This document shows, piece after piece, positions 14,139 to 14,154 of a DNA stretch of 64,000 nucleotides. The notes beneath the pieces were generated by a model. It did no database searches, was not told the origin of the DNA, and was given only the letters and a program-made list of their open reading frames with translations. A program made the position numbers and the translations under genes. Every line of letters begins with the position of its first letter. The first letter of the stretch is position 1. This DNA is from Escherichia coli (lineage in GTDB: Bacteria > Pseudomonadota > Gammaproteobacteria > Enterobacterales > Enterobacteriaceae), in assembly GCF_016026235.1 (NCBI RefSeq), contig NZ_CP065613.1; one strand, given 5' to 3'.

Positions 14139-14154
14139 TGGCATGATTCTTGTA
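14139..14154 (+). promoter_or_regulatory. Putative sigma-54 promoter (-24/-12) of pspG
   Basis: tggcatgattcttgta approximates TGGCAC-N5-TTGCA, about 35 bp upstream of the pspG start; pspG is sigma-54/PspF dependent in E. coli. Coordinates approximate. Confidence 0.45.

Follow-up and report, generated by a model that had tools for sequence, protein, structure and literature searches.

A sigma-54 promoter with a PspF enhancer, an IHF site and a conserved T at -12 upstream of Escherichia coli pspG

A 17-mer, TTGGCATGATTCTTGTA, at positions 14138-14154 (+) of a 64,000-nucleotide stretch of Escherichia coli DNA (hereafter the window) is, we conclude with high confidence, the sigma-54 (RpoN) promoter of pspG, and it is accompanied by an enhancer for the activator PspF and by an IHF site. 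The pspG promoter, its dependence on sigma-54 and PspF, and the GT found at -12 in psp promoters (Huvet et al.; Zhang et al.) are already known. As a discovery the result carries little weight; the gain is that a motif spotted from the letters alone in a first-pass annotation is validated and given exact coordinates, and that the whole spacer between dusA and pspG is now mapped at the level of single bases.

The gene order in the window is dusA-pspG-qor-dnaB. The region matches E. coli chromosomes at 99-100% identity and was found in 5,425 of 5,426 complete genomes; between positions 13650 and 14750 it is collinear with MG1655, with 16 substitutions and no indels. The RefSeq names for identical E. 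coli DNA place dusA 5' of the element and pspG 3' of it. The two genes have the same orientation, and 133 nt separate the end of dusA from pspG. The pspG coding sequence (14190-14432, +; ORF frame and RefSeq annotation) specifies an inner-membrane Psp effector of 80 aa; the ATG at 14190 is the first one downstream of the element that starts the membrane-protein ORF. A Shine-Dalgarno sequence, GGGAGAG, can be read at 14179-14185 (+), 4 nt 5' of the ATG; within Escherichia its GGGAG is constant and its final two bases vary. Just 3' of pspG lies pspH, a small regulatory RNA in the RefSeq annotation of MG1655 (14489-14599, +), the 3' end of which is a bidirectional terminator hairpin (14568-14590) common to the convergent qor. 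An Rfam scan of positions 13900-14700 returned no above-threshold family for pspH, and a single sub-threshold ctRNA match on the pspG/qor terminator, which we take as noise.

The first-pass annotation had placed TGGCATGATTCTTGTA at 14139-14154 (+) and feared that its coordinates were off by one base; the placement is exact and the offset is absent. Its description of a -24 match with GT in place of GC at -12, about 35 bp upstream of pspG, also stands: the GG is at 14140-14141, the GT at 14152-14153, and 35 nt (14155-14189) lead to the ATG at 14190. Written out, the element reads TGGCAT-N5-TTGTA, which we counted as a match to the sigma-54 consensus TGGCAC-N5-TTGCW, the two doublets being correctly spaced, ten bases apart, and GT being a tolerated variant of GC. 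We scored the window with a weight matrix built from the 134 other sigma-54 ChIP-seq sites of Bonocora et al. 2015 (PMC4591121), pspG having been omitted (leave-one-out). By this score, a check that had been proposed along with the motif, the pspG element reaches 15.16 bits, which ranks it second among 127,968 window positions and 47th among the 135 bound sites. Only two positions in the window attain at least 15.16 bits, those of pspG and fdhF, both of them published sigma-54 promoters. The window holds two occurrences of TGGCA-N6-TTGYW, where 0.82 would be expected; with two mismatches to the consensus allowed there is no enrichment in the window (34 found, 42 expected). First-order Markov simulations gave an expectation of 1.15 hits of at least 15.16 bits per 64 kb, with one or more in 68% of runs. 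The motif score by itself does not exceed chance for 64 kb. Since the bare motif stands at chance level, context is needed to call the element real: arithmetic from the Markov rate puts the probability of such a hit, in the right orientation and inside the 133-nt spacer between dusA and pspG, at about 0.001.

Two further sites in the window deserve mention. The highest-scoring one, GTGGCATAAAAGATGCA (50673-50689, -; 16.0 bits), is the published fdhF promoter site OS41, with a predicted start 41 nt 5' of an ATG at 50621. The gene 3' of OS41 is split into an ORF of 139 aa (50202-50621, -) followed by one of 559 aa (48474-50153, -). Presumably this is the in-frame selenocysteine TGA at codon 140 of fdhF, which would explain the split. 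The other site, CTGGCACATGATTTGCC (7613-7629, -), scores 15.0 bits, close to pspG, and is missing from the high-stringency list of 135 ChIP-seq sites; it may illustrate the chance-level background of the motif, or be a low-stringency site.

Upstream of the element, the PspF enhancer (UAS) occupies 14060-14086 (+) and has the form TTCACCA-N5-TAGT-N4-TTCACCA, two boxes 20 bp apart that span approximately -105 to -79 from the predicted start, within the ~80-150 bp upstream range looked for in an AAA+ activator enhancer. A gap-free alignment pairs it with the pspA enhancer TTCGCCActtgtTAGTgtaaTTCGCTA of the MG1655 pspF-pspA spacer (our locus L081, 1421-1447), with 17 of 27 bases identical and equal box spacing. 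Bono et al. 2016 (PMC4987338) list TAGTGTAATTCGCTAACT as the PspF enhancer; positions 14072-14089 agree with it at 11 of 18 bases and are in this sense related to it. TAGTGTAATTCGCTAACT itself corresponds to 1433-1450 of L081. A degenerate form of the enhancer pattern was found once in the window against 0.01 expected, an optimistic contrast given that the pattern was partly derived from the same sequence.

Between the enhancer and the core promoter lies an IHF core, AATCAATAGATTA, at 14122-14134 (+; approximately -43 to -31), a perfect match to WATCAANNNNTTR. The dusA intrinsic terminator (14086-14115, +), recovered by a terminator scan, has a G+C-rich stem of 10 bp, a loop of 6 nt and a T-run; its minimum free energy is -19.1 kcal/mol (z = -2.84), and compensatory double changes are seen at 8 of the 10 stem pairs across 35 species. 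The terminator is thus nested within the enhancer-promoter loop of pspG, between the enhancer and the IHF site, and base 14086 is common to the terminator and the second enhancer box.

To follow these features across species we assembled 80 pspG loci, each species being represented by a single genome, over a range that runs from Escherichia to Yersinia, Rahnella, Biostraticola and Brenneria, and anchored each on the best weight-matrix site 5' of pspG; site counts refer to 79 species. Four blocks of the spacer are conserved: the PspF enhancer, the dusA terminator, the IHF core and the -24/-12 element. A sigma-54 site was found 5' of pspG in 78 of the 79 species. By a strict regular expression, 52 of 79 species have the enhancer, which also stands out as a block in the multi-species alignment, beginning 78-80 nt 5' of the 17-mer. 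The CA and TTA of the IHF core are constant in all 26 diverse species aligned, and the strict IHF consensus is present at -16/-17 from the 17-mer in 30 species; a strict regular expression recovers the IHF core in 32 of 79. Of 5,427 E. coli records, 4,300 carry an identical core, and the variants sampled differ outside the motifs only; in the aligned Escherichia sequences variation falls in the NNNN positions of the IHF site, in the terminator loop and in bases past -12, with none in the 17-mer or the enhancer boxes. The five bases of the N5 spacer vary freely across species. In the Citrobacter werkmanii locus (L024) no convincing sigma-54 site was found within 300 nt of pspG, the best scoring 8.7 bits. 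Relative to the Enterobacteriaceae, some 10-11 extra bases separate the IHF core from -24 in Yersinia (L075), Rahnella (L076), Biostraticola (L077) and Brenneria (L078 and L080); this is about one helical turn, which would leave their relative orientation on the helix unchanged. In these same four genera the promoters are much farther from the ATG (59-190 nt).

While the element, its score, the arrangement of enhancer, IHF site and promoter, and their conservation come from our sequence comparisons, the published record supplies what concerns occupancy, the involvement of PspF and IHF, and induction. Base for base, the 17-mer equals a ChIP-seq site, OS40, that Bonocora et al. 2015 (PMC4591121) assigned to pspG with a fold-above-threshold (FAT) value of 15 and a predicted start 25 nt 5' of the gene; this FAT value ranks 23rd among the 135 sites. 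By the account of Bonocora et al., OS40 is marked 'C', for experimentally confirmed in EcoCyc (PMC4591121). Expression of pspG is raised by sigma-54 overexpression, one of five such genes with upstream intergenic sites, and PspF is cited as its activator. In genomic SELEX (gSELEX) the RpoN holoenzyme binds the spacer between dusA and pspG (Shimada 2021, PMC8743547), and in Salmonella the orthologous site, TGGCATGATTTTTGTAAG, shows a ChIP-chip enrichment of 39, among the highest listed (Samuels 2013, PMC3844500). PspF binds the UASs of both the pspA and the pspG promoters (Mehta 2013, PMC3709507), and papers that cite Lloyd et al. 2004 state that pspG expression needs sigma-54 and PspF. The claim that pspG is a PspF/sigma-54 target is thus borne out, by the identity with OS40 and by an enhancer and an IHF site that are both present and conserved. 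The dusA-pspG spacer (~14057-14189) is also listed among the gSELEX targets of NtrC (Shimada et al. 2021, PMC8743547), which may mean that a non-cognate activator cross-binds there, or that the SELEX signal is an artefact.

Two readings would deprive the element of its role as the pspG promoter, and the evidence set out above bears on both. One holds that it is a chance match. The expectation of about 1.15 matches of this quality per random 64 kb gives this some purchase, as do the site at 7613-7629, which scores nearly as well and is missing from the high-stringency list, and the emphasis of Bonocora et al. (PMC4591121) that the majority of the 135 bound sites lie inside genes and may not be productive. 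The pspG element, however, is intergenic, correctly oriented and 35 nt from its gene; the enhancer and the IHF site are conserved with it at fixed spacing in dozens of genera; and it is bound both in vivo and in vitro, with pspG responding to sigma-54 overexpression. On the basis of context, co-conservation and binding data we consider a chance match hardly conceivable, and effectively refuted. The other reading makes the sigma-54 site accessory and has most pspG transcripts arise from dusA read-through or from a sigma-70 promoter that went unrecognised. That dusA is co-oriented and ends just 133 nt upstream speaks for read-through, but the strong, covarying terminator stands between dusA and the promoter; against a sigma-70 promoter, a search of + strand positions 13900-14650 yielded no sigma-70-like match; and the literature, as represented by the citing papers above, has pspG transcription requiring sigma-54 and PspF. 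We reject both forms of this proposal, on the terminator, the lack of a sigma-70 match and the literature, and judge it very improbable.

As a sigma-54 promoter, the element should have a defined start, and in vitro probes carrying a -10 to -1 bubble imply one. The rule of Bonocora places the start 19 bp 3' of the motif centre (14146), which predicts a G at 14165 (+), 12 nt 3' of the -12 T, with an accuracy of approximately 2 nt in either direction. From this position to the ATG at 14190 is 25 nt, in agreement with the figure given by Bonocora. In the supplements of the published start-site and sigma-network datasets that we searched, pspG (b4050) is absent, and the supplement of Mehta 2013 holds no promoter coordinates.

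The promoter follows the standard scheme of enhancer-dependent initiation. Sigma-54 RNA polymerase on the -24 GG and -12 GT (14138-14154) forms a closed complex, locked at the -12 fork junction and unable to melt DNA alone. The AAA+ activator PspF occupies the two-box enhancer (14060-14086) some 80-105 bp upstream, and IHF at 14122-14134 bends the intervening DNA so that PspF can touch sigma-54. Hydrolysis of ATP by PspF then opens the promoter, with transcription predicted to start near 14165, 25 nt 5' of the pspG ATG. In the absence of stress PspA keeps PspF inactive, and membrane stress frees it.

The pspG promoter may be compared to its relatives. To our knowledge, pspA is the only other PspF-dependent promoter. 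The E. coli pspA(BCDE) promoter, TTGGCACGCAAATTGTA, shares with pspG (TTGGCATGATTCTTGTA) the activator, the rare T at -12, an enhancer in which TAGT lies between two TTCRCYA boxes set 20 bp apart, and an IHF site that follows the enhancer and precedes the promoter. The two differ in that pspA has two UASs and is induced approximately 100-fold, whereas pspG has one and is induced approximately 20-fold (Mehta 2013, PMC3709507). They differ also in geometry: the pspG enhancer is, by arithmetic, approximately 13 bp nearer its promoter (box starts at -105 and -118, respectively), and it abuts the stop codon and terminator of dusA, whereas that of pspA has a second effect, repression of the divergent pspF promoter. 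The pspG promoter of Salmonella Typhimurium (STM4244) carries the orthologous TGGCATGATTTTTGTAAG, likewise with GT at -12 and bound by sigma-54 in ChIP-chip (PMC3844500), and differs from that of E. coli at one base, which falls in the N5 spacer; the site is 68-69 nt 5' of the ATG in the two Salmonella subspecies sampled, compared to 35 in E. coli. Canonical sigma-54 promoters such as glnAp2 and hypA share with pspG the GG at -24, the TTG at -14 to -12, the exact spacing and the dependence on an enhancer, IHF being optional; at -12, however, they have a near-invariant C where pspG has T.

The rarity of this base is evident from the bound E. coli sites, in which motif position 16 is C in 125, A in six and T in four of the 135; pspA and pspG are two of the four. 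Among the 79 species, 73 have GT as the -12 dinucleotide 5' of pspG, four have GA (one of these being a spurious low-scoring hit), one has GG and one GC; in this respect pspG has the GT, in place of GC, looked for in the PspF regulon. The sole GC is in Salmonella enterica subsp. diarizonae (L030; TTGGCATGGTTTTTGCT, 20.2 bits), where it looks like the product of a 3-nt change from TTGTAAT to TTGCTTTAAT. GT is found also at pspA in both E. coli and Salmonella, and at Salmonella pspG, and an 'unusual GT motif' at pspA has been noted in almost all species (Huvet 2011). The T thus persists in 73 of the 79 species, is common to pspA and has already been reported; it is a conserved feature and not decay.

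The first-pass annotation had suggested that IHF and PspF dependence might lie behind the imperfect -12. In its full form the proposal has the sigma-54 promoter inherently weak because its -12 departs from the consensus, and takes this weakness as the reason that IHF (and PspF) are needed. It draws strength from the matrix, by which a C at -12 would lift the score from 15.2 to 20.3 bits, from the conserved IHF site directly upstream, and from the help that IHF gives to PspF binding and looping at psp promoters; IHF dependence, moreover, tends to accompany weak closed-complex promoters of the nifH type, which we counted in its favor. However, an enhancer-binding ATPase is needed at every sigma-54 promoter, whatever the quality of its -12. 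Nor is the site a weak binder: occupancy in vivo is high, both in E. coli (FAT 15) and in Salmonella (enrichment 39), and the matrix rank is 47th of 135. The T, shared with pspA, is selectively kept and is not drifting. The literature and data that we retrieved contained nothing tying the -12 T to a requirement for IHF. We regard the weakness of the promoter as an unlikely explanation, and the causal link, as worded, is unsupported.

If the pspG element is a sigma-54 promoter in which the T is conserved, what might the T do? A less conserved C at -12 has been linked to low-level, activator-bypass transcription, and at pspA in vivo no bypass was seen (Schaefer et al. 2015, PMC4551910); a literature search for the effects of mutating -12 between T and C brought up this bypass study and, otherwise, general sigma-54 reviews only. 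We infer that a tuning role is plausible. More specifically, and more tentatively, we raise the possibility that the T is positively maintained as a regulon-specific mark of the PspF promoters pspA and pspG and is not a tolerated defect: by weakening the hold of sigma-54 Region I on the -12 fork junction, it could tune the opening of the closed complex by scarce PspF hexamer, and so set the basal level or the speed of the response. If so, a strict need for phasing in the same loop geometry would explain why the extra DNA that separates the IHF core from -24 in Yersinia, Rahnella, Biostraticola and Brenneria amounts to approximately one helical turn. Exchange of T for C at both pspA and pspG would be a clean test of what the -12 base does in sigma-54 regulation. 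The published observation of GT at pspA is here extended to pspG, where, over 79 species, the consensus C is almost never used despite a gain of approximately 5 bits.
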